Shown in pieces: positions 18,734-59,118 of a stretch of 64,000 nt of DNA (its first letter is position 1; every line of letters starts with the position of its first letter). The notes below the pieces were generated by a model. The model saw only the letters and a list, made by a program, of their open reading frames with translations, was not told the DNA's origin and did no database searches. The stretch comes from a virus, in IMG/VR virus record IMGVR_UViG_2579778703_000007, positions 11,499 through 75,498 of that record. One strand, given 5' to 3'. The position numbers and the translations under genes are program-made.

Positions 18734-19034
18734 TAAATCCCCCTTTTATATGTGTCCTGCAAAGTGTATTCGGAATGGTGGCAATTGCTCAATAGACGGG
18801 CGTTACTTACTTTTTAAAGGCTATAAAATAGGGCTGGTTTTTGGGAAAAAGCCATTTATCAATGGTCTATGTAAAGAAAAACCTCTCACCCAACGAGTGA
18901 GTGAGAGGCCAATCCAACCGTTTTGTCGCGCGGCAACGCGAACAAAACATTCCACGAGGAAATAATGAGGTGAAATCTATATTTGAGAGATTTGGATTAT
19001 AGCCAATTTCGTTTTCGCATCAATATGCGTCAAT

Positions 19035-32655: not shown

Positions 32656-32821
32656 TTGCTCTGACACAGAGTTGTTTCAAGATAAAATATATAGAAAGTT
32701 TTCCAGCGTCATCCCTAGCAAGTTTATCTCTGTAATCTCCTTAATGCTCTATCCTAAAATAATACCTATGTTCAGTGCACCTTAATTTTAATTTTATAAG
32801 GGGCATAATATGTCTAATCAA
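32656..32821 (+). repeat. csp leader region, copy 1 (about 165 bp)
   Basis: Near-identical to 33067-33232, including the RBS and first codons ATGTCTAATCAA. Confidence 0.85.
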
Positions 32822-33019
32822 GTAATTGGTACAGTAAAGTGGTTTAACGAAACTAAAGGTTTTGGTTTTATTTCTCAAGCAAATGGCGATGATTTATTTG
32901 TTCATTTCAGGAGCATTTTAGGTGATGGTTTTAAGAAGCTTATTGAAGGCGAACAGGTTTCCTTTACTGTAGGTAAAGGTCCTAAAGGCCTTCAAGCAGA
33001 AAATGTAACGACTATTTAG
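32810..33019 (+). CDS. Cold-shock protein (CspA family)
   Basis: [15 protein letters not shown] (RNP1), LFVHF (RNP2). Confidence 0.96.
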
Positions 33020-42982: not shown

Positions 42983-44632
42983 TTATGCCGCTGCTGCTAC
43001 AGGAGCTTCGTCGATAAGTTTCACACGGTAGAAGTAGTTCTCACCGTCGAATGGATGGATCTCGCCGTAGGCCAATTCGTATAGCGTGTTAGACGCTACT
43101 AGACCTTTGCCGATTGGATGTGTGTACATGGTTGCTGCGATCGCATCACCCGCTACGTAACCGGCTTCTGAGTGAGAAGAACCGCGACCGTAACAAAGCA
43201 TGTCGTTCGTACCGATAACGACTGGACACTCGAACACTTTCCACATACCGAACAATTTACCCGCGTAGTGGATAGCGTTTTTCTGTTGGTAGTTAGCCGG
43301 AGCAACGAAGTATGGAGCACCTAGTGACTTAAGGATTGTTGACGCGCCAGTACCAGCAAAGATACCTGTCATGCCAGTTGTGCGAGTCGCTTGTAGGATC
43401 TTCGTAGAAACGTTTAGAAGAACTTCGTTTAGACGTTCACGATGTAGACGCCAATCTTCACCAGCCGCTACGTAGATATTGAATGTTTCTTCGCGTGTAC
43501 ATGCGAAGTCCATATCTACTAGGTGGCGAGTAGACTTCTCTGATGCCAATGTGTTGCGCATGTGGCTCATTTGCAGCGATTTCAGATCTTGGCCAAACTC
43601 ACGTTGCATTGCGAACATCGCTTGGATTGTTGCGTCTGCTGCGATTGCGTTTTGACGTGGACGTAGTATGCGAGAATCCATATCATGGTCGATCGTCGGG
43701 ATCAGGTCAGGGCGTCTTTCAATGTCTACTTCGAACTCGATATGCAGAACGGTCTCTGCTGGTAGGGCCGATGTTGGAGTGACGGTAACTTTGCCTTTTG
43801 CATGGTCTATCTGACAGTTAATAACCATACCATTGTGAGTGCCAGTCATTATTTGACTGCCGTTGCTGTCTAGGTCGCGAGCCACACGTTTATGGTTAAT
43901 AAATAGGGAAACAGATGTCTTCGTGAATGGGATTTCAAACTTTGTGTGTTGTAGGTCAGTCTTAGAGTCAAAGACGTGAGTTGTCTTAGTGCCGTCTGGT
44001 TGCTGTTCAGCGACAAACTTGTAACGCTGACGCATTGACGAGTATTGACCAACCGTTGCTTGGTCGATTTCAGTACCCGCTGCGAAGTCACCAAAGTTTG
44101 AGCCAGTGCGGCGGTACACTTTGAAGATCTCAACTTCGTTGGCTCCCGCTGGGATCATCGTTACAGCGTCAAGTGTTGCTGTTTCAAGAAGAACAGGAAG
44201 CACTAGGCCAACCATTTTCGCGCGGATTTCAACACCCTCTGACGTTGATAGAGACTGACCGATAGACTCAAGCATCATTGCGCCTGTTGAGCCGTCACGT
44301 TTAGCGCCCTCTAATGTCATCATGTTACGCATAGTTGCGTGAGCTGATGCCATTAGTTCGTCGCTAGGTAGGTGGCCGTAAGTCTTTTCGTATTCACGTA
44401 CCGCAGATTGCATACCTGACACGATGCCAACCGCTGTTTCTTGAGGCACTGACTCGAACATTGGCTCATTCGCAATGGCTGACAAAATAGCCGCGCCACG
44501 AGAATTGTCGTCAGTTAGAAACATGCCTGTTTGCGCATCGAATTGGGATTCGATACACAGATTACGCATTGCTTGAGCGCCTAAATGAATCGCCTCAATG
44601 CGTTTGTTGAAGTTAGAACGTTTATCTGCCAT
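42983..44632 (-). CDS. Major capsid protein (P1 gp23-like)
   Basis: 549 aa; MMLES propeptide motif; YSSMRQ, AGYVAGDA; synteny with 22 and 21. Confidence 0.88.
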   Translation of the reverse strand: MADKRSNFNKRIEAIHLGAQAMRNLCIESQFDAQTGMFLTDDNSRGAAILSAIANEPMFESVPQETAVGIVSGMQSAVREYEKTYGHLPSDELMASAHATMRNMMTLEGAKRDGSTGAMMLESIGQSLSTSEGVEIRAKMVGLVLPVLLETATLDAVTMIPAGANEVEIFKVYRRTGSNFGDFAAGTEIDQATVGQYSSMRQRYKFVAEQQPDGTKTTHVFDSKTDLQHTKFEIPFTKTSVSLFINHKRVARDLDSNGSQIMTGTHNGMVINCQIDHAKGKVTVTPTSALPAETVLHIEFEVDIERRPDLIPTIDHDMDSRILRPRQNAIAADATIQAMFAMQREFGQDLKSLQMSHMRNTLASEKSTRHLVDMDFACTREETFNIYVAAGEDWRLHRERLNEVLLNVSTKILQATRTTGMTGIFAGTGASTILKSLGAPYFVAPANYQQKNAIHYAGKLFGMWKVFECPVVIGTNDMLCYGRGSSHSEAGYVAGDAIAATMYTHPIGKGLVASNTLYELAYGEIHPFDGENYFYRVKLIDEAPVAAAA

Positions 44633-44914: not shown

Positions 44915-45262
44915 TTATAGCGTTCCAGCCAAAAAGCCGAACACATTGCTTAGCAGCTCTTGTGTGTCAGTCTCCAAGCTGGGAAGCTGTACACCGTAGA
45001 AAACCGCTAAAAAGTCACGAACGATGAGCTGATAAACGACCACCAGCGCAATGCTCCACATCATCGCTGAGCGTCCAGTGCGTACCAGCGTGTTAGAGCT
45101 GGCCGCCTCAAGTTCTGCCAGTTGGTAGGCGAACTCTTTACGTTCTTCGTCGCTGGTAAACACGCGATCCCCAAATTCGGCCAGTTCGTGAATAATACCG
45201 CCCACTTTATCGCTGGTGGCACTCTTAAATAGACCTTTAGTAAACACTTTTGCTAGTCCCAT
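44915..45262 (-). CDS. Putative holin
   Basis: FTSDEER motif plus TM helices; coupled to the amidase. Confidence 0.65.
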
Positions 45263-45264
45263 AT

Positions 45265-45813
45265 TTAGCCCTCTTTGATGTGTTCTGCGAACGCTTCTGC
45301 CAGTACCACGGCAAGCTGTTCACGTAGTTCTAAGCCCTTTTGCAACGATTCATCGTTAGACAAAAAGAACGGCTCTAAAATCACGGCTGGCATCTTGGTT
45401 TTCATCAAGAAACGCCAACCGCGAGTATCAGTACCAGTGTTCGAGATAGGCTTAAGACCACGATTACGCTGTCCGATAAGTTCAGCCACCGCTTTTTGTA
45501 GGCACTGCGCGAGCGCTTGGCTCTTGGCGGATTTGTGCCAGTACAATGTCTCTGAGCCTTGAACGTTCTTATTGGCCACGCTGTTACAATGTAACTCGAT
45601 GGCGTAGTTAGCGCCCAAACCGTTCACGTCATCGATCATGCGTGAGTAGGTATCTCGGTACATGATCACTGGAAGAATGTCGCGCTTATGCAGTTCGGCA
45701 GCCAATAAGCTGGCTAGGGGATGATTGTATGCGTACTCATTCATTCCGAATGTTTCATTGTGCGCGCCACCATCTTTAAAACTATGTCCAACGATAATAC
45801 AGACTTTTTTCAT
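45265..45813 (-). CDS. N-acetylmuramoyl-L-alanine amidase (Amidase_3) endolysin
   Basis: [21 protein letters not shown] zinc/catalytic motifs. Confidence 0.92.
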
Positions 45814-45857
45814 TTTTCAGTTTTCCAAACTCAATATAACTAATTAACAGTTAAGTG

Positions 45858-45886
45858 TTGACTGTGTTCGGAATAGGAAATATGTT
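45858..45886 (+). promoter_or_regulatory. Sigma70-type promoter for the candidate sRNA
   Basis: TTGACT-17 bp-TATGTT. Confidence 0.6.
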
Positions 45887-45891
45887 ATTTG

Positions 45892-46015
45892 CATCTACTC
45901 GTTCTCCCAAGCGAGTGATGCCAACTGACGTTGAGATACTTCAATTTACTTCGACTGACAGCCTGACATTAGCTTCCAGTTTCGCCGCGACTCACTTACC
46001 TCGCGGCTTTTTTTT
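45892..46015 (+). ncRNA. Candidate Qrr-like small RNA
   Basis: Promoter, 5' hairpin, GCCAACTGACGTTG (Qrr core) at 45920-45933, GCCGCGA/TCGCGGC terminator with long T-run. Confidence 0.6.
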
Positions 46016-46061
46016 GCCTGTCGCATAGAAAAAACCAGCGCGAACGTTGGCTTTACTTGGA

Positions 46062-46403
46062 TTATGGTCGGTTTTGAACGGGCTCTATCTTGTTTGATTT
46101 AAAGTAATCAATAACAGGATTTACTCGATACGGCTCTACATGGAAGCTGGCCATTACCTGATCGTTGCGCATCAAGTAAAACTGATTCCCGTTGTATCGT
46201 ACCGCATCAAATATCACGTTCATTCTGCATCCATCGTACATGTACTCGCCATCGACGCTAAGGCTTTTGCGTACCACAAAGGATAGGCGCGCCTTGGTCG
46301 CTTTAAGCTCGTTACGGACTTTAACTAAGTTAATCGTCAGTACGATAAGGAGCGACAATAATCCGCATAACGCGTATGCGTTAAGGTTAATTGAATAGCT
46401 CAT
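46062..46403 (-). CDS. Hypothetical membrane-anchored protein
   Basis: N-terminal TM helix, 113 aa. Confidence 0.6.
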   Translation of the reverse strand: MSYSINLNAYALCGLLSLLIVLTINLVKVRNELKATKARLSFVVRKSLSVDGEYMYDGCRMNVIFDAVRYNGNQFYLMRNDQVMASFHVEPYRVNPVIDYFKSNKIEPVQNRP

Positions 46404-46453
46404 ATTGTTATTTTTTATGTACGAATAGGAAATTTACAACATACGGAAACATT

Positions 46454-47221
46454 CTACAGTGGAAACACATCTGCTGTCGCGTCTTTGATGCTCGGTTTTT
46501 TCGTCTGGTTGCTGCAAATGGTAAACGAAATCGCCTTAGTGAAGTAGTCCAGCGCCAAGGTGCGTTCCTCTTTCGACGCAATGATCATTGCCTCAATCAC
46601 CTTGCTTGAGCTGGCCACGCCACCAGCAAGCGGAGTCATTACCTCGTTTAGTGCATCGGCCTTGTTGGCCAGTTCTGGCGGTAAGACTGGCGGCGGCAAG
46701 GTTGCACCGCCACCCGTACCACTACCGCCCGTTGGTGGCGCTGGTGGCGTTAATGCGCCGTTGATTTGTGCCATTAGGGACACGGCCTCATCAACATGGC
46801 CAGAAAGACCGTTGATCACTGCCTCAAGCGCTTTCAGTTCTTCCTTGCTGGTAATTGGCAATATACTCGGAGCGGGTACGTTGTCCTCTGTACCATCCAC
46901 CTTGCGCTTAATGTTCACACCAATAGACACTTGCTCTAGGTCGGTTGGGTCGGTGATCAACACTAGGTGCTCATTCCATTGCGTTAACGTGGCCACGGTT
47001 GCGCTCACTGAGCCATTTAAGCCCTTAAGCGTTGCGACTAGCTTTGATGCGCCTTGGTAGTCCTCAATATCCTCGCTCACGCAGCCTGATAGCTTCTCTG
47101 ACAAACTTTCACACTTCACCTTAAGGGATTTACCTCGGGTAAGGTTCTCCGCTTCCTTAAGGCCGCCTACGTCTAAAAACTGGCGAAACTGCTCGATTTG
47201 CTCTTGTGTGTCTAACATCAA
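46454..47221 (-). CDS. UpfB-like protein
   Basis: Follows PAAR as upfB follows upfC in P1; helical with a Pro/Gly linker. Confidence 0.55.
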   Translation of the reverse strand: MMLDTQEQIEQFRQFLDVGGLKEAENLTRGKSLKVKCESLSEKLSGCVSEDIEDYQGASKLVATLKGLNGSVSATVATLTQWNEHLVLITDPTDLEQVSIGVNIKRKVDGTEDNVPAPSILPITSKEELKALEAVINGLSGHVDEAVSLMAQINGALTPPAPPTGGSGTGGGATLPPPVLPPELANKADALNEVMTPLAGGVASSSKVIEAMIIASKEERTLALDYFTKAISFTICSNQTKKPSIKDATADVFPL

Positions 47222-52116: not shown

Positions 52117-52240
52117 TATAACAAACTGTTTAAGGGTGATTCGCAATGCGTGGCATTTTTGGTATGCGTTGGTTTTAGTGGTTAAGGCGTTATGCGGTGG
52201 CATCGGTATTGCGTTGCTCAGCCCTTAACAAGGCGTTATA
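52117..52240 (+). repeat. attC (VCR-type)
   Basis: TAACAAACTGTTTAAG...CTTAACAAGGCGTTA. Confidence 0.9.
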
Positions 52241-52553
52241 TGCCTGTAATAAGAAAGTCGATAGCAGAGATGATCTCGTCTCTAAAAGTGCTTAGATCAT
52301 TTACAGGCTCTCTTAGAATTTTGGTTGGTACACTTGCCATTTGATGAGTCAGAATTACGAAGTCACCTTCATCAATATGGATTACGGGGCATAGATGACT
52401 GGGCGCTTTTTTCTCTAACAACTCAGTAGGCGTTAGCGGAATAACTAATCGAGTGTTCAATGTATCAAGCAATTCACTTTGAACGTCAACAAAGTATGGG
52501 TATGCGGTTGAAGTGCTTTTATCGTTGTTTTTGTATAGCGAAAATTGTGGCAT
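52236..52553 (-). CDS. ccdB: CcdB gyrase toxin
   Basis: QFSLYKN, YFVDVQS, TRLVIPL, AIDFLITGI. Confidence 0.95.
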   Translation of the reverse strand: MPQFSLYKNNDKSTSTAYPYFVDVQSELLDTLNTRLVIPLTPTELLEKKAPSHLCPVIHIDEGDFVILTHQMASVPTKILREPVNDLSTFRDEIISAIDFLITGI

Positions 52554-52798
52554 TAGAATACTCGGTAAGAATCAGAAAATAGTCCGTGGTTTTCAGTTAG
52601 CTCGTTGCAAGCATTAATGGCATCAGCATTTTGCTCTAACCATTCAGCTTTCAGGCGTTGACTCACTTCTTTCTCAAGTGCCTTTTCCATTGTTGCCGAA
52701 AGGTTTATATTTAAGCGTTTAGCCTCAGCAAGTAACTCACTATTTAAGCTTAAGTTTGTAGCTTTCTTTGGTGCTTGCGTACTATGTGCGTTTCTCAT
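52553..52798 (-). CDS. ccdA: CcdA antitoxin
   Basis: KKATNLSLN, INLS, WLEQNADAI, GLFSDSYRVF. Confidence 0.95.
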   Translation of the reverse strand: MRNAHSTQAPKKATNLSLNSELLAEAKRLNINLSATMEKALEKEVSQRLKAEWLEQNADAINACNELTENHGLFSDSYRVF

Positions 52799-52853
52799 GA
52801 TAGTCACCTATGCGTATTGTGTGTGCGCATGAATTATAGGCGCAATACAAGCA

Positions 52854-52979
52854 TATAACAAGGCGTTTAAGAGGGGTTCATGCCGCGTGGCGTTTTTGGT
52901 CTGCGGTGAGTTTTGGTGGTGAAAGTGGTCTGCGTAAAGTTGGTTTAGGCGGCACTCACCCCTTAACGCAGCGTTATAA
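52854..52979 (+). repeat. attC (VCR-type)
   Basis: TAACAAGGCGTTTAAG...CTTAACGCAGCGTTA. Confidence 0.9.
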
Positions 52980-53001
52980 AGCTCGAAGAAAAGGACATTT
53001 C

Positions 53002-53511
53002 GTGGAAATTCGAACAGGTAAATTAGAAGATGTTGCTGGCATCACCGACATCTTTAATTTTTACATTGAACACACCAATGCACGCTTTGAGGAAGTTCCA
53101 TTTACTCTGGAAAATCGTCAGAAATGGTTTTCTCAGTTTTCTAACACTACCAAATATCAGCTATATGTAGCTATAGAAAACGGCGTATTGCTCGGTTTTG
53201 CATGTTCTCAACAGTACAGAGCAATTTCAGCTTTTGACGACACTGTAGAAGTGACCGTTTATCTGGCTCAAGAAGCTAGGGGGAAAGGTTTAGGCTCTAA
53301 ACTATATACTCAGTTGTTCTCATCCGTTCGTGCTTATGGCGTCCACCGTGTATTGTCGGGTGTTGCATTACCAAACGACGCATCAGTTGCATTACATAAA
53401 CGGTTTGGTTTCAGAGAAGTTGGTGTTTTCAATGAATATGCGCAGAAACATGGGCAGTACATAAGCTCGGTGTGGTTAGAAAAGGCGTTTAACGTAGAGT
53501 TCGCTTTATAA
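53002..53511 (+). CDS. GNAT N-acetyltransferase (phosphinothricin/YncA-like)
   Basis: ARGKGLGSKL, PNDASVALHKRFGF; GTG start after AGGA. Confidence 0.9.
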   Translation: MEIRTGKLEDVAGITDIFNFYIEHTNARFEEVPFTLENRQKWFSQFSNTTKYQLYVAIENGVLLGFACSQQYRAISAFDDTVEVTVYLAQEARGKGLGSKLYTQLFSSVRAYGVHRVLSGVALPNDASVALHKRFGFREVGVFNEYAQKHGQYISSVWLEKAFNVEFAL

Positions 53512-53631
53512 CAAACAATTTAAGAGTGATTCGGCACGCGTGGCATTTTTACTATTCGTTGTGTTTAGTGTTTAAGGTGATATGTGGCGGCTTCGGCATT
53601 GCGTTGCTCACACCTTAACAGGGCGTTATGC
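53507..53631 (+). repeat. attC (VCR-type)
   Basis: TAACAAACAATTTAAG...CTTAACAGGGCGTTA. Confidence 0.9.
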
Positions 53632-53655
53632 CTCACGATGAAAAAGGAACTTTCG

Positions 53656-54243
53656 ATGTTTAAAATCGAGACTAAGCGTTTGATTATTAGGGATATGAAT
53701 CCGAACGATGAAAGTGCTTTTGTTGCTATGTCTCAGGACGCTAAATATCAGCGTTTCTATGACGAAAGTGATTGTGACCCTAATAAATATAAAGAGCTAA
53801 CAAACTTGTTTATAGCTCAGGCTTTTGAAGAACCAAGAAAGTCATATCAGCTAGCTGTTGAATGTAAGGATTCAAGGCAGTTTATTGGGACTGTTTGTTT
53901 GCGCTTGGAAGACAATCAACAAGCTTCAATGGGGTGTGCGTTTTCAAGATCATCGCAAGGATATAAACTAAGCTATGAAGCTGCTTTAGCTCTTGCAGAC
54001 TTTGGTTTTTCTGAGTTGGGTGTTCACCGTATCTATGCGGAGACAATTAGTAAGAACCTAGCAGCAATTAAGCTCTGTAAATCTTTAGGTATGCGTCAAG
54101 AAGCACATTTTAGAGAGCATCGCTTTTTCAAAGAACAGTGGTGGGATACAGTAGTTCTGGCAGTTCTTCGAACCGACTGGGACAAAGGCATAACAAAGCA
54201 TTTAAGACGGATTCCCAACGCTCAGCATTTTCAGTTCAAATAG
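53656..54243 (+). CDS. GNAT acetyltransferase (RimJ/RimL-like)
   Basis: IETKRLIIR, HRIYA, N.AAIKL..SLGM..E; the frame reads into the attC. Confidence 0.88.
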   Translation: MFKIETKRLIIRDMNPNDESAFVAMSQDAKYQRFYDESDCDPNKYKELTNLFIAQAFEEPRKSYQLAVECKDSRQFIGTVCLRLEDNQQASMGCAFSRSSQGYKLSYEAALALADFGFSELGVHRIYAETISKNLAAIKLCKSLGMRQEAHFREHRFFKEQWWDTVVLAVLRTDWDKGITKHLRRIPNAQHFQFK

Positions 54244-54313
54244 GTTTAAGTGATTAGGGCACAATGGTTTAGCTTGGGTGGGACGTTGCTCACTCCTTAA
54301 CGCGGCGTTATGT
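54188..54313 (+). repeat. attC (VCR-type)
   Basis: TAACAAAGCATTTAAG...CTTAACGCGGCGTTA. Confidence 0.9.
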
Positions 54314-54337
54314 GTAATCGAAAGTAAGGAGGCTTTT

Positions 54338-54757
54338 ATGGCGAATAAATATCGAGGTTCATGCCTTTGTGGTAGTGTGAAGTATGAGCTTTTAGGTGAG
54401 TTCCAGTCTTTCTTTTTATGTCATTGTACTCGTTGTCAAAAAGGTACAGGCTCGGCTCATGGTGCCAATTTGTTTGCCAAAGCTGGCACCTTAACTTGGT
54501 TAAACGGTGAAAGTGATGTCAGAACGTATAAACATCCAAATTCATTTCATGCAAAAAGCTTTTGTTCAAAATGTGGGTCTGCACTCCCAACGTTTGCAGA
54601 AAGTATTAACAGCGTAGTGGTTCCGGCAGGCAGTCTCGATAGTCCAGTTCCAATTCCGCCTACTGCTAAAATCTTTGTTGGTAGTAGCGCTAAATGGTCT
54701 ATGAAATTGTGCGATGTACCTAGCTACGAAAAGCTTCCAGAACAAGCTAAGAGCTAA
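54338..54757 (+). CDS. GFA / CENP-V family zinc protein
   Basis: GSCLCG, CHCTRCQK, FCSKCGS. Confidence 0.92.
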   Translation: MANKYRGSCLCGSVKYELLGEFQSFFLCHCTRCQKGTGSAHGANLFAKAGTLTWLNGESDVRTYKHPNSFHAKSFCSKCGSALPTFAESINSVVVPAGSLDSPVPIPPTAKIFVGSSAKWSMKLCDVPSYEKLPEQAKS

Positions 54758-54759
54758 AT

Positions 54760-54887
54760 GCATAACAAAGCGTTTAAGGCAGATTCGCAACGCTCGGCAT
54801 TTTTAGTTCAAGTCGAGTTTTGGTGTTTACGGTGCAATGGTTTAGGTTAGGTGGTAGCGTTGCTCACTACTTAACGCGGCGTTATGC
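54760..54887 (+). repeat. attC (VCR-type)
   Basis: TAACAAAGCGTTTAAG...CTTAACGCGGCGTTA. Confidence 0.9.
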
Positions 54888-54916
54888 GCCAATAAAAAAC
54901 AAAGGTTGGTCTCTAA

Positions 54917-55462
54917 ATGTTAACAACAAAAATTGAAACGGAACGACTAATACTAAGAGCTTTAGTTGACGATGATGCAAGAGACTTGTTTGGTATTTTC
55001 TCAGATCATGATGTCATGAAATATTGGAACTCTAGTCCCTGGGTTTCAATTGATGAGGCTAGATTATTTATAGCCAATAGCGTACAGGCAATGAATAGTA
55101 ATACAGAAGTGACCCTAGGTATTTACCTAAAGAGTACTGGTCAACTTCTGGGTAAGATAATGCTATTTAACTATGCGAAAGAGTCTAGGCGCGCAGAAAT
55201 TGGGTTTGGCGTCAGCCGTAATTTCTGGGGTAAAGGTATTGTACTCGAGGCGGGAACTGCGCTTATTGAATACGCATTTAAAAACTTGCAGTTACGTCGA
55301 ATCGAAGCTGAGATAGATCCAGACAATATTTCTTCAGGTAAAGCCTTGGAACGGTTAGGGTTTGTTAAAGAAGGCTTTCTAAGGCAGCGGTGGGAAGTTA
55401 ATGGGATTGTCTCAGATTCCGCAATTTATGGGTTACTAGCTAAGCCTTTGGGCAGCGCATAA
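54917..55462 (+). CDS. GNAT acetyltransferase (RimJ/RimL-like)
   Basis: IETERLILR, FWGKG, N..S..LERLGF..EG. Confidence 0.92.
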   Translation: MLTTKIETERLILRALVDDDARDLFGIFSDHDVMKYWNSSPWVSIDEARLFIANSVQAMNSNTEVTLGIYLKSTGQLLGKIMLFNYAKESRRAEIGFGVSRNFWGKGIVLEAGTALIEYAFKNLQLRRIEAEIDPDNISSGKALERLGFVKEGFLRQRWEVNGIVSDSAIYGLLAKPLGSA

Positions 55463-55582
55463 CAAACTGTTCAAGAGGGATTTGCAACGCGTGGCATTTT
55501 TACTATGCGTTGATGTTAGTGTTTAAGGTGGTATGCGGCGGCTTTTGTATTGCGTTGCTCACCCCTTAACAGGGCGTTAGCA
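55457..55582 (+). repeat. attC (VCR-type)
   Basis: TAACAAACTGTTCAAG...CTTAACAGGGCGTTA. Confidence 0.9.
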
Positions 55583-56160
55583 ATATAAGAGGGGATTACA
55601 GATTTAGATGAACTGCTATGTTCGATATTTCGTACCCACTCTTTAAGGAGCTTCCAATCTTCAGCCGCAAGGAGGTCTTGAGCCATTGGTAATTGGAAAA
55701 AGAAGAGATACCATGACATTTCACGTTGTTTAATATCAGGCATGCTTAGTGGACCGAATGGATGCCCAACAGAAATTGCCGTTAGCGATTTTGTTGTTTC
55801 TGGGTAGATACCAGCAAACGCCCAAGAGACAGCTGCGCCCCAGTCATGGCCAACGACATGAACTTTTTCGATATCGAGGTGATCTACAACCGCTTTTACA
55901 TCCGATGCTAGCATGGTGATGTGGTAATGTTCTTTTTCAATCGGCTTAGAAGTTTTACCGTAGCCACGCATATCTAAAGTAATCACACGGTAGCCAGCAT
56001 TTACAAATGGATCAATTTGGTTACGCCAAGCGTTGGCAGAGTCGGGGAAACCATGTACAAAAACAATCGGCTCTCCTTGACCCTTTTCATAAGCCTGAAT
56101 GGTAATATCACCATTTTGCACTTGGAACGCACGACCCAGATATGATAAATCGTTATTCAT
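55516..56160 (-). pseudogene. 3'-truncated alpha/beta hydrolase (epoxide hydrolase-like)
   Basis: HGFPD and GHDWGA present; C-terminal catalytic region absent; frame runs into the attC antisense. Confidence 0.75.
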
Positions 56161-56218
56161 ATTTTTATCCTTTTGGAATAAGTAGTAGCCGTAGCTACTA
56201 CTTATAAGCTACATAGAA

Positions 56219-58114
56219 TTATTGTTCTGCAGAACTAAGCATTTTTAATAGGTCTTGTAAGCCTTTATCTTTTTTCCAATCATAAATAGGGTCAAATAAT
56301 CCCATTAGCTGAGAGGCTTTAGCGTTACTACCTTGAATGACTTTAACTTTTCCATCTTTTAGCAGATCATCAAAAGTCGCGAGGTTGTTGTAAATTTCAG
56401 CCCAAACCTCTGGTTTCATTTGTATAGTGACATCTGATTTAGCTTTGCTCATTACAGCGTTATCAAGGTAATTTACTACTGCTCGGCTGATTTCCAATCC
56501 ATAAACATGGTCTCCCCCAAAATCAAATTTAATTGTTGCTTCAGTATTATCTGAACGTTCAGGGTTAATACGAATACGGTAATAGTTAACGTAATCATTG
56601 ATGTTTTGCACGATTGAAGCAGGGGAAGCTGGAACATTCTTAATAATATTTACTTGGCCACGAAGTTCAGCAGCTTGTGCTAAATAGAACGAACGTGAGT
56701 TGGTTGATGTGGCACGGTAGCCCATTTGTTCCAATGCATCGGCTTTTAACTCTTTGTTTTTCTTATTCGGGTTACTTTGCACTAAGTAATCAGACACTTG
56801 CGCTGACCACAAGTAATCACCGTTATCAAATGCTTGTTTGGCTAGGCTGTAGGTTTTATCTTCCCCTCCCATCGCGCTAACCATACGCATCGCTTCATCT
56901 TTTGGATGTAACTTATTTAAGTGGGCGGCATTGCGGTCATATTGACCAAACAACGCGGTATAAATACGCGGCGGCATAATCGAAATTTCACCATAGTTTT
57001 GAACCAGAATCGGTGATTCTTTCAGGTATTTAGGCAGTTTTACGCTATAGCGAAGTTCGTCAGGCCCCTGACCCAAGGCAATATTTTTTAATGACTGATC
57101 AAGAACAAACGCTAAACCATCGTGGTAACTTTTCAAGCGAGCATCGATTTTATCTTTCCCCACAAGTGGAGTGGAATGAGTTGAAAGTAAGATTTCAGGC
57201 TTTAGTTCTTTTATCTTGTTTAATGCTCCCATCCAATCATTTGGATTGCGGTAACGACCACCACGGGCACTGTAGATATTAGGGAACCAACCCCAGACAA
57301 CATTATTCAATACCGCTTTTTTGCTTGGAACATAGACCATCAACTGGTTTGAGGTATCAGTACCAATTCCGTCTATGTAGAACACCATATCCAAGCCTGC
57401 TACATTGATCGTTTGACCATCATGAGTTGGCGATAAATTCACGGGTACGAAACCACTTGGGTCTAGCATGACGGTATTTTTATAGCCGGCATTATCCCCT
57501 TCATTAGGCAGGTAAGCGTTAAACTGCTCGATACTACGAGCCATGGTGATGCCGCTAGTCTCAGGATGTATTGACGATAGACCACCATTTTGGGCAATAG
57601 ATGCATTGGTGTTCGGGTGTCCAATAATCTTAATATCAGTATTACCACGGGCCGCTTCTTGTTCTAACATGTAGCGTGCGCCGAAAGTGTAGTGTTCATG
57701 CGAATACACAATGGCAGCAATAGGTTTATCAGTTTCTTTACGCAGCATAGTATAGAACTCTTCCGCATCATGATCGTTGTCGCCAGTGTCGTAGATAATT
57801 AGGCCTTCAGGTGCTTCGATGGCACTCATGTTAACAATTGATCGAGAGCCAAAAGTCCAGATACCGTCGGCAACTTTTACAGTAGTTGAGTCATCATAAG
57901 AGGCTCGCTGCTCGCTATGTGTACCCAAATTCCAAAATGAAGCGGTTTCTTGATTGACCTTTGCTTTATTGCCATTTTCTGGAAGGTGAGTTAATGGGGT
58001 CTCTTTAGCATTCATGTAGGGAGAACTAAAGTCAGGATTATTTGCTGCAAATGTAGTGGTGGTTGTTAACGTCATTGCAGAAATTAAGGCTATGTTCAGA
58101 GCTTTCATTTTCAT
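56219..58114 (-). CDS. Alkyl/aryl sulfatase (SdsA/BDS1-like metallo-beta-lactamase fold), secreted
   Basis: Signal peptide, IIYDTG, YSHEHY, PNIYSARG, dimerisation and SCP2-like C-terminus. Confidence 0.85.
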   Translation of the reverse strand: MKMKALNIALISAMTLTTTTTFAANNPDFSSPYMNAKETPLTHLPENGNKAKVNQETASFWNLGTHSEQRASYDDSTTVKVADGIWTFGSRSIVNMSAIEAPEGLIIYDTGDNDHDAEEFYTMLRKETDKPIAAIVYSHEHYTFGARYMLEQEAARGNTDIKIIGHPNTNASIAQNGGLSSIHPETSGITMARSIEQFNAYLPNEGDNAGYKNTVMLDPSGFVPVNLSPTHDGQTINVAGLDMVFYIDGIGTDTSNQLMVYVPSKKAVLNNVVWGWFPNIYSARGGRYRNPNDWMGALNKIKELKPEILLSTHSTPLVGKDKIDARLKSYHDGLAFVLDQSLKNIALGQGPDELRYSVKLPKYLKESPILVQNYGEISIMPPRIYTALFGQYDRNAAHLNKLHPKDEAMRMVSAMGGEDKTYSLAKQAFDNGDYLWSAQVSDYLVQSNPNKKNKELKADALEQMGYRATSTNSRSFYLAQAAELRGQVNIIKNVPASPASIVQNINDYVNYYRIRINPERSDNTEATIKFDFGGDHVYGLEISRAVVNYLDNAVMSKAKSDVTIQMKPEVWAEIYNNLATFDDLLKDGKVKVIQGSNAKASQLMGLFDPIYDWKKDKGLQDLLKMLSSAEQ

Positions 58115-58218
58115 ATCTATAGTCTTCTGTTTGGATCAAACAAATACTATTTTGCTATTGTGAAAGTAGTAATGATAGTTAAGACTATCTTGCGAATATC
58201 GCAAGAAGGTACATATGC

Positions 58219-59118
58219 ATGGATTTACATAATCGCTATTTAGATTTGCCATTAGAGCTAATGAAAACGATGGTGTTGCTCTATCACAATCCTAATCTTA
58301 AAAAAGTTGGAGATATTCTAAAGAAGTCTGAAAGCGCCGTTAGCCGCGATATTACCAAGCTGCGTGAAAGGTTGAATGATCCAATTTTCATTCGCAGCGC
58401 TCAAGGAATGGAACTAACCCCTTTAGTACAGCAACTCGCACCACAGATAGAGCAGAACTACAATCAAATCGCGAATATATTGAAGAAAGCCACAACTTCG
58501 TGTACTGATTTTTCACAATATACACAGCCTATTGTTATTGCGCTTAACTCTTATATTTATCAGTATGTAGCAGCAAAATTGACAAGTGTGTTGCTACAAC
58601 ACTTTCCTCAAGCGACATTTCATATTCAGCGTTGGGGGAAGGATACCCTCGATGCTATTACTGCTGGTGATATCGATATTGGAGTTCACTTTAGTGACTT
58701 TGAAACCAACAAAGATATTGCTCTACAGCATATTTCTGAGTATCACGTTTATTTAGCCTGCCATCCCGATGTGCAAATCACTAAGTTAGATGATGTACTT
58801 GATAATTTGCTGATTATCGCTAGATTACCGTCTTGGAATGAACATCGTTATCGTCTTTTAGAGAAGCTAAAGATTGAACCTAAGAAAGTTGTTTATGTTG
58901 ACTCATTAGCTACAGCTTATGAAGTCGTGCAAAGCGTGCCATCGGTTTCTTTTTTACCTGATTTTATCTACGACAATTTAAAAGTTAAGGTCATAAAATT
59001 AGATGAGAATATGAGTTATTCGTTTTCGTCTTTTTTTAAACAAAGTCATCGCCGAGAACCATTTACTCAACATCTACATAACTTAATACAATCCGTTGTT
59101 TCACCCAAAGAGTCCTGA
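58219..59118 (+). CDS. LysR family transcriptional regulator
   Basis: SESAVSR..KLR..LNDPIFIR; divergent from the sulfatase; TTGCGAATATCGCAA inverted repeat upstream. Confidence 0.92.
   Translation: MDLHNRYLDLPLELMKTMVLLYHNPNLKKVGDILKKSESAVSRDITKLRERLNDPIFIRSAQGMELTPLVQQLAPQIEQNYNQIANILKKATTSCTDFSQYTQPIVIALNSYIYQYVAAKLTSVLLQHFPQATFHIQRWGKDTLDAITAGDIDIGVHFSDFETNKDIALQHISEYHVYLACHPDVQITKLDDVLDNLLIIARLPSWNEHRYRLLEKLKIEPKKVVYVDSLATAYEVVQSVPSVSFLPDFIYDNLKVKVIKLDENMSYSFSSFFKQSHRREPFTQHLHNLIQSVVSPKES

Follow-up and report, generated by a model that had tools for sequence, protein, structure and literature searches.

It is known that phages eavesdrop on Vibrio quorum sensing, as VP882 does through VqmA, and that they carry Hfq-binding RNAs. 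The closest described counterparts of the RNA considered here are the Vibrio sRNAs Qrr1-5 (RF00378), which share with it a 14-nt seed in the second stem-loop (SL2) following a 5' hairpin, four stem-loops, a terminator, a similar length and the predicted register of luxR pairing; they differ in that our RNA is phage-borne, has an unrelated SL1, SL3 and terminator, lacks the bases 5' of the seed, and is preceded by a sigma70-type promoter with a phage operator-like box rather than by a sigma54 site. For Qrr4, SL2 is needed for luxR repression and SL1 and SL3 are dispensable, while SL1 is needed for aphA activation by Qrr2-5 (PMC3730234). Among phage RNAs, VpdS of VP882, an RNA of ~50 nt that competes for Hfq and promotes phage replication, is likewise encoded by a temperate Vibrio phage and tied to quorum sensing, and is set apart in that the review describing it does not present it as a copy of a host seed (PMC12197685). 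VqmA of VP882 and the AphA homologues of prophages (phrog_13512) each represent a phage's own copy of a host quorum-sensing part; what is copied in the present case is an RNA seed. The AgvB, Pas and PreS RNAs of enterobacterial prophages resemble our RNA in being small trans-acting RNA genes that occupy intergenic slots as variable alleles; however, AgvB mimics an mRNA target to sponge GcvB, whereas our RNA holds the sRNA's own seed in the same sense and thus would add to Qrr action. No phage- or plasmid-borne Qrr was found in the literature, most subscription papers lying outside the search, and no phage-borne Qrr appears in the available portions of PMC12197685, PMC13501541 or the prophage-sRNA preprint 10.64898/2026.05.13.724894, in keeping with the remark in a first-pass annotation of this DNA that it knew of none. 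The locus reported here is best explained as a phage sRNA gene that carries the exact Qrr SL2 seed on a different scaffold behind a sigma70-type promoter and that, on release of this promoter, would likely repress translation of host luxR/opaR (and other SL2 targets) by Hfq-aided pairing, an explanation to which we give an even chance of being right.

The locus lies in a 64,000-nt stretch of DNA (the window), which is part of a 105,843-base virus record. Judging by its gene content and its relatives, the record is a P1-like phage-plasmid of Vibrio. It carries portal, terminase, holin, Ref-like and SSB genes, and its probable major capsid protein (42983..44632, minus strand; phrog_1014; 33-34% by tblastn to annotated capsid proteins), which served as the query for relatives, has counterparts of 97-98% identity on 10 plasmids from V. 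alginolyticus, V. diabolicus and Vibrio sp.; the capsid relatives comprise 936 plasmid records, 777 of them distant ones from Escherichia. The sRNA locus is situated amid late genes and is divergent from an Amidase_3 endolysin gene (45265..45813, minus strand, 182 aa; PF01520, E 1e-26; phrog_435) and a holin-like gene (44915..45262, minus strand, 115 aa; phrog_3427, E 6e-19), and its right neighbor is a gene of unknown function (46062..46403, minus strand, 113 aa) with no PHROG or Pfam match. For the 2.3-kb region, no matching cultured phage was found in the phage collection. Elsewhere in the window, inspection by eye pointed to a cold-shock-protein-like ORF of 69 aa (32810-33019, plus strand) and to a cargo block (52236-59118) with a toxin-antitoxin-like pair and acetyltransferase-like, hydrolase-like and LysR-like ORFs.

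The promoter, the 5' hairpin, the 14-mer and the GC stem with its U tail were all recovered where the first-pass annotation had placed them. The sigma70-type promoter, TTGACT-17-TATGTT (45858..45886, plus strand), has its -35 element at 45858-45863 and its -10 element at 45881-45886 and matches 9 of the 12 consensus bases; five such sites occur in 1.3 kb, compared to 2.2 +/- 1.6 in shuffled sequences, and taken alone the promoter match is weak. With a start site placed from the -10 box, the sRNA would extend over ~124-125 nt (45892..46015, plus strand) and is predicted to fold into four stem-loops: SL1 (45891..45921), which is unrelated in sequence to SL1 of Qrr; a small SL2 (45922-45933) built from the seed GCCAACTGACGTTG (45920..45933), the first two bases of which are overlapped by the SL1 hairpin; a weak SL3 or variable region (45953..45980), which is a candidate second seed or Hfq site; and an intrinsic terminator (45984..46015), consisting of a 7-bp GC stem (45984-46007) followed by U8 (46008-46015). 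The terminator loop of 10 nt is above the limit of 8 in the hairpin scan, which therefore did not list it. Folding of the plus strand yielded -36.1 kcal/mol (z = -4.2), a value equaled by none of 200 shuffles, and the minus strand of the RNA stretch gave a z of -2.9. In addition, CTGAC occurs twice 3' of the seed (45953-45971), resembling a decayed second seed copy.

Contigs from four RNA runs (X1, X2, X3 and X5) are ~99% identical to the window. The X1 contig spans the RNA (45805-46039, depth 4.6), the X3 contig reaches into it, to 45949, and the X2 and X5 contigs do not cross the seed; such contigs cannot show level, strand or ends. Three raw-read runs (X21, X22 and X24) had no reads on the stretch and were thus uninformative on transcription. 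In a contig of the seawater RNA run X6, both flanks match and 126 different letters replace the 117 of the RNA body (45890-46008), which marks the RNA body as the variable unit.

For comparison with host Qrr, we used the five Qrr loci of one V. diabolicus genome as a stand-in host (81-113 bits in Rfam). All five contain the 14-mer, so the Qrr core that the first-pass annotation had given is correct, and this 14-mer is the longest word that they have in common with the window RNA. Its claim that the identity exceeds chance also held: the longest shared word averaged 6.8 and did not exceed 11 in 150 shuffles, and the alignment score against V. diabolicus Qrr was reached by none of 400. The 14 central bases of the conserved SL2 pairing core are identical, with flanking core bases differing on both sides, and the predicted fold has the four stem-loops and 3' intrinsic terminator of Qrr, SL3 being weak and of unrelated sequence; a Qrr-type SL1 sequence is absent, the 14-mer being the only shared word. 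When the whole 105.8-kb record was searched with RF00378 (E<=10), a scan of the kind that the annotation had proposed, this locus was the sole Qrr match, but its 15.7 bits (E 0.18) fell short of the gathering cut-off of 50. Sub-threshold Qrr matches were also obtained in 6 of 14 control genomes, indicating that the location carries weight and the score does not. A scan of 45000-47000 against Rfam (E<=10) gave six unrelated weak matches and no Qrr. The Qrr mimic that had been proposed is thus upheld as a predicted sRNA gene, independent of LuxO and sigma54, with an SL2 seed and predicted luxR pairing, but not as a member of the family: the window RNA is Qrr-like in its working by prediction and is not an RF00378 member.

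The 14-mer is partly self-complementary and therefore carries less information, and IMG/VR holds at least 119 loci with it (about 430 estimated), which among the matches inspected lie mostly inside unrelated genes. Since the 14-mer is common in large collections, the case rests on position and conservation. Several other candidates were discarded. The bare 14-mer loci of IMG/VR other than pTHAF64_c, among those inspected, looked like chance or one conserved coding motif; a 17-mer match (L006/L075/L173) was antisense within a transposase gene of an unrelated phage; and a scan for the promoter-plus-hairpin pattern returned 12 loci, five being known family members and seven chance hits.

The most informative comparison is with pTHAF64_c of Vibrio sp. 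THAF64, the capsid of which is 76% identical to that of the window. At the same place beside its amidase gene, this plasmid has a promoter of the same spacing followed by another SL1, another SL3 and another terminator, and its RNA has 17 bases identical to the Qrr core. The syntenic locus is the sole Rfam Qrr match in that record (20.7 bits), both RNAs fold as four stem-loops with the seed as SL2, and the two are 51% identical overall, their best local alignment being an 18-nt block over the seed. Because pTHAF64_c keeps 17 bases of the Qrr core in an RNA that otherwise fails to align with that of the window, chance would be an unlikely source of the seed at this locus. Conservation of the 14-mer relative to its flanks, the check that the first-pass annotation had put forward, thus gave a divided result, favorable in pTHAF64_c with its unrelated flanks and unfavorable among 14 close relatives that were aligned (capsid 97-98% identical; the plasmid match H5 was left out). 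Only one of these (L128, nearly identical to the window) has an intact seed; in the other 13 the seed is changed, matching at 12 of 14 positions in 12 relatives and at 11 in one, and the predicted luxR pairing is lost.

The relatives with a changed seed nevertheless keep the promoter, the SL1 stem, a four-pair SL2 stem and the terminator, with variation in the SL2 loop, as if in these degenerate alleles structure counted more than sequence. In the common allele the SL1 stem is kept with altered letters, two pairs being changed on both sides (relatedness inflates such counts), and about 97-97.9% of the cells of the terminator and kept stems are paired over the 16 aligned rows. Promoter spacing at the syntenic place is identical in all 16 rows and, by eye, in L131, L137, L138, L182 and L194. 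A promoter and a terminator were present at this place in all inspected members down to 65% capsid identity, with differing bodies between them; within the neighborhood, conservation is lowest in the RNA body (69% identity, vs 89% in the amidase and 95% in the 113-aa gene). L131, a third lineage, keeps both seed arms, its score being reached by none of 400 shuffles, and L137, L138, L182, L183 and L194 have weak or no Qrr likeness (their scores are reached by between 16 and 296 of 400 shuffles, the five counts being 16, 35, 101, 121 and 296; L183 was grouped with the syntenic RNAs though it is not beside an endolysin). In L138 and L131 the amidase has given way to a glycosyl hydrolase 108-type lysin (annotated in L138), but the divergent sRNA slot is retained. 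In five records from Photobacterium, Aeromonas and V. vulnificus, the stretches examined near the capsid gene contained no match to the 14-mer within two mismatches. With THAF as the outgroup, we infer that the intact seed is either ancestral or a reacquisition from a host Qrr.

The degenerate majority allele would be explained if the locus were a fast-changing phage sRNA slot acting through its 3' variable region or through Hfq occupancy, for which VpdS provides a precedent (PMC12197685), and the seed were a relic that is kept in some lineages and is decaying in others. This arrangement, which we consider rather unlikely, is consistent with the family-wide retention of a promoter and terminator around differing bodies, as well as with a common allele that has lost luxR pairing yet has kept its fold and terminator. 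Moreover, most of the best-scoring partners predicted for the whole window RNA pair with its nt 55-109, many top partners using SL3 or the variable region, and two short blocks downstream of SL2 occur in both the window and the common allele. However, these blocks are absent from THAF, and a relic would not be expected to persist at 14 of 14 bases in both the window and pTHAF64_c while the remainder of the two RNAs has diverged to 51% identity.

Pairing was predicted with our own script, which adds an opening cost to the ViennaRNA duplex energy, rather than with IntaRNA, and was applied to the leader of the luxR locus and 1031 others taken by a simple rule from 1.2 of the 5.1 Mb of V. diabolicus. 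When a 26-nt seed window was used, the window RNA placed luxR 16th of the 1032 leaders (-13.3 kcal/mol, leader bases -27..-13), V. diabolicus Qrr placed it 12th (-13.6 kcal/mol) and THAF 3rd (-16.3 kcal/mol); with the degenerate alleles it came 445th and 474th, and with the reversed seed 218th. When each RNA was folded whole, the luxR rank fell to 94 for the window RNA (8 for V. diabolicus Qrr, 2 for THAF and 240 for the fourth RNA ranked), indicating that the window RNA would need to have its seed opened. The luxR pairing for which the first-pass annotation had asked is predicted for the seed (16 of 1032) and less so for the whole RNA (94 of 1032). Hfq opens the seed for Qrr, and the U8 tail after the terminator stem fits Hfq binding. 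The predicted duplex between the seed stretch (45919-45934) and the luxR leader at -27..-13 (-15.2 kcal/mol, 13 pairs) is in the register of Qrr and adjoins the ribosome-binding site without covering the Shine-Dalgarno sequence itself. Directly after the seed, both the window and THAF have an A that pairs with the V. diabolicus luxR leader; in Qrr this position is a U. One of 151 Vibrio genomes contains the exact leader pattern of V. diabolicus, and the extended pairing of THAF ranked 3, 19 and 3 on three stand-in leaders. As a positive control, the known Qrr targets luxO (rank 149) and aphA (rank 549) were missed by the script even for Qrr, so a negative result for these two genes is soft. 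Nevertheless, since the window RNA has neither the SL1 of Qrr nor the bases 5' of the seed that paired luxO in the control, it is predicted to be luxR-biased.

Several further leaders match the score of luxR, with Qrr as with the phage RNAs. One V. diabolicus leader (G001:C20:368783, minus strand) was among the top eight for the window RNA, the THAF RNA and Qrr through the seed, and on this model may be an unrecognized Qrr target. Such leaders fit with an alternative in which the locus does encode a Qrr-seed regulator whose selected target is not luxR but another SL2 target that sets lysogeny or defense. Published findings point the same way: lysogeny of VP882 is promoted by Qrr sRNAs by way of an unknown target and without a need for OpaR (PMC11315295), and the ddmABC defense operon is turned off at low density by repression that is described as HapR-independent (PMC9455884). 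We judge this alternative unlikely, given that the additional A following the seed, present in both intact alleles, specifically strengthens the match to luxR and that a search of 131 phage leaders yielded no seed-pairing target shared by the alleles. A cis-antisense target was rejected as well, there being no perfect 12-nt match elsewhere in the record.

The first-pass annotation saw no -24/-12 element, and the best sigma54 site indeed scores 4 of 10, compared to 8-9 for V. diabolicus Qrr1-5. The start of the -35/-10 spacer is filled by an operator-like box, GTGTTCGGAAT (45864..45874, plus strand), a putative site for a phage regulator, presumably a repressor. The box occurs at 23 sites in the 105.8-kb record, 19 of them outside called ORFs, and those listed within the window are at 18766, 34145, 44661 and 45864; sites precede ssb, holin, capsid and terminase genes as well as a gene of 295 aa that converges on the terminase genes, and vary in position and direction. 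In five related records the box core was found 22, 19, 9, 9 and 0 times, vs 1, 4, 1, 1 and 3 times for a reversed control, amounting to enrichment in four of the five, and the core lies at the same place in the sRNA promoters of relatives. Phage P1 resembles the record in having many copies of one operator-like box, that of C1, a repressor that maintains lysogeny from operators close to promoters; the late genes use a separate activator, Lpa (PMC8198154). The varied position and direction of the window box would fit a C1-like repressor of this kind. A candidate repressor gene is the 295-aa gene itself (G000 93155-94042), which has one box upstream and one inside; the only match found was a weak one to a PHROG of unknown function, and there was none in the phage collection. 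The sequence of the window box differs from that of P1.

Because the operator-like box lies within the promoter, expression of the sRNA is probably phage-controlled and not constitutive. Repression of the promoter in the lysogen is favored and, in our estimate, fairly probable; alternatively, the box may be the site of a late-gene activator that shuts the sRNA off late, which is possible because the box also adjoins a divergent promoter-like site (TCAACA-17-TATATT, 45833..45861, minus strand) that faces the endolysin. Under both alternatives, expression of the RNA would be linked to the phage program. With the box between -35 and -10, it is doubtful that the RNA holds the host in a low-density state when the phage is a resident plasmid, as the first-pass annotation had suggested. 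In another explanation, the locus is cis-acting DNA only, with a divergent promoter, an operator and a pair of back-to-back terminators insulating the lysis genes, and the 14-mer is a hairpin that arose by chance. A convergent terminator-like hairpin with a U run (46028..46050, minus strand; read from the sequence, its stem being listed on the plus strand also) adjoins the locus behind the 113-aa gene, and there is no sign of an abundant short RNA in the RNA-derived contigs, which cannot show level. The self-complementarity of the 14-mer, its ~430 estimated stretches in IMG/VR and the sub-threshold matches in 6 of the 14 control genomes are also in line with such an origin. Set against these points are the seed with 17 identical bases found at the syntenic place of a distant relative, the compensatory changes that keep SL1 and the plus-strand promoter spacing that is kept throughout the family, and we regard the explanation as improbable. 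Finally, a 36-codon peptide from ATG 45918, whose conservation the first-pass annotation had named as grounds for abandoning the sRNA and for which the frame is open over 36 codons and, in the common allele, from a GTG at the same place, is a most improbable product and by comparison of the alleles appears largely refuted, since its stop codon is beyond the terminator, THAF has a stop codon where the start should be, the common allele differs from the second residue on and shifts frame, and a longer 57-aa frame has no PHROG match.

In the preferred reading, that of an sRNA gene with a functional Qrr seed, a C1-like repressor would silence the sRNA promoter in the lysogen, and a phage regulator would release it after infection or induction. 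The seed would then pair, presumably aided by Hfq, with the luxR leader at -27..-13 in the register of Qrr, and LuxR/OpaR would be lowered without a cell-density signal, moving the host toward the low-density state. Lacking both the SL1 of Qrr and the Qrr bases that precede the seed, the RNA would be expected to have little effect on luxO and aphA. A low-cell-density switch may have its other half in the AphA homologue of the phage, a PadR regulator of 177 aa encoded just past the right end of the window (G000:C1:75537-76070, minus strand; L262:538-1071), which is 47% identical to host AphA over its first 87 residues (E 5e-25). Homologues are encoded on the 10 closely related plasmids and on those of THAF, V. 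campbellii and HNV2, and also occur in 91 Vibrio phage records. A published paper already reports the AphA homologue of this phage family, and neither 'qrr' nor 'sRNA' occurs in its main text (PMC13670528). The likely benefit to the phage would be damped density-controlled defenses or a tilted lysis-lysogeny outcome. Titration of the QrrX sponge, also suggested by the first-pass annotation, is unlikely, given that V. harveyi is without qrrX and that carriers of the close relatives are not among the species listed with qrrX (PMC9732341).

If this reading is true, a phage copy of the central quorum sRNA seed amounts to writing to the circuit, past autoinducers and LuxO. Because Qrr levels steer VP882 lysogeny (PMC11315295) and some Vibrio defense operons are off at low density (PMC9455884), a phage-made Qrr would offer a direct and cheap test of why a phage wants the low-density state. 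The natural alleles (intact, extended and degenerate), together with the fuller Qrr of the cultured vB_Alvi_H905 and K303, provide ready controls.

Scanning IMG/VR with the 17-mer gave 11 loci, comprising pTHAF64_c, four contigs with a near full-length Qrr and six loci in coding regions. In the four contigs (L168, L169, L170 and L174; 40-44 kb) the Qrr is directly upstream of holin/endolysin genes on the same strand, and both of the contigs that were scanned, L168 and L170, score above the Rfam cut-off (74.5 and 62.2 bits) and have no sigma54 site. We take this layout to resemble that of a lambdoid late-promoter leader RNA. When V. diabolicus Qrr was used as a query, 86 records of the phage collection were matched, 82 of them Vibrio phages, with Aliivibrio phage vB_Alvi_H905 (L265, PP986400.1) and the K303 group at the top, and in both records examined the match was just upstream of the lysis genes. 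The Qrr copy of vB_Alvi_H905 is near full-length, has no sigma54 site and shares the strand of the holin/endolysin genes that follow it. No AphA match was found in the four smaller Qrr-carrying phages searched. Two 'plasmid' Qrr matches, including H231, were of chromosomal type, in records of chromosome size, and were dropped. We tentatively propose, with somewhat less than even confidence, that temperate phages of Vibrionaceae have repeatedly captured the Qrr seed and rewired it from LuxO/sigma54 to their own promoters beside lysis genes, and that in the P1-like family a luxR-biased mimic and an AphA homologue would form a two-part switch forcing the low-cell-density quorum state at infection or induction. 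New here are the operator-like box in the promoter, the co-encoded AphA homologue and the fuller Qrr copies beside the lysis genes of unrelated Vibrionaceae phages.

The K303 group (L266, OZ195676.1; L268, NZ_CP098035.1; L276) comprises ~80 records of ~36 kb and represents a third phage group, in which the 5' half of Qrr and the seed are followed by the phage's own terminator upstream of a holin gene. Full Qrr genes with an intact sigma54 site were also observed on two Vibrio plasmids (L269, NZ_CP019123.1; L270, CP035920.1), adjoined in L269 by umuDC-like genes.
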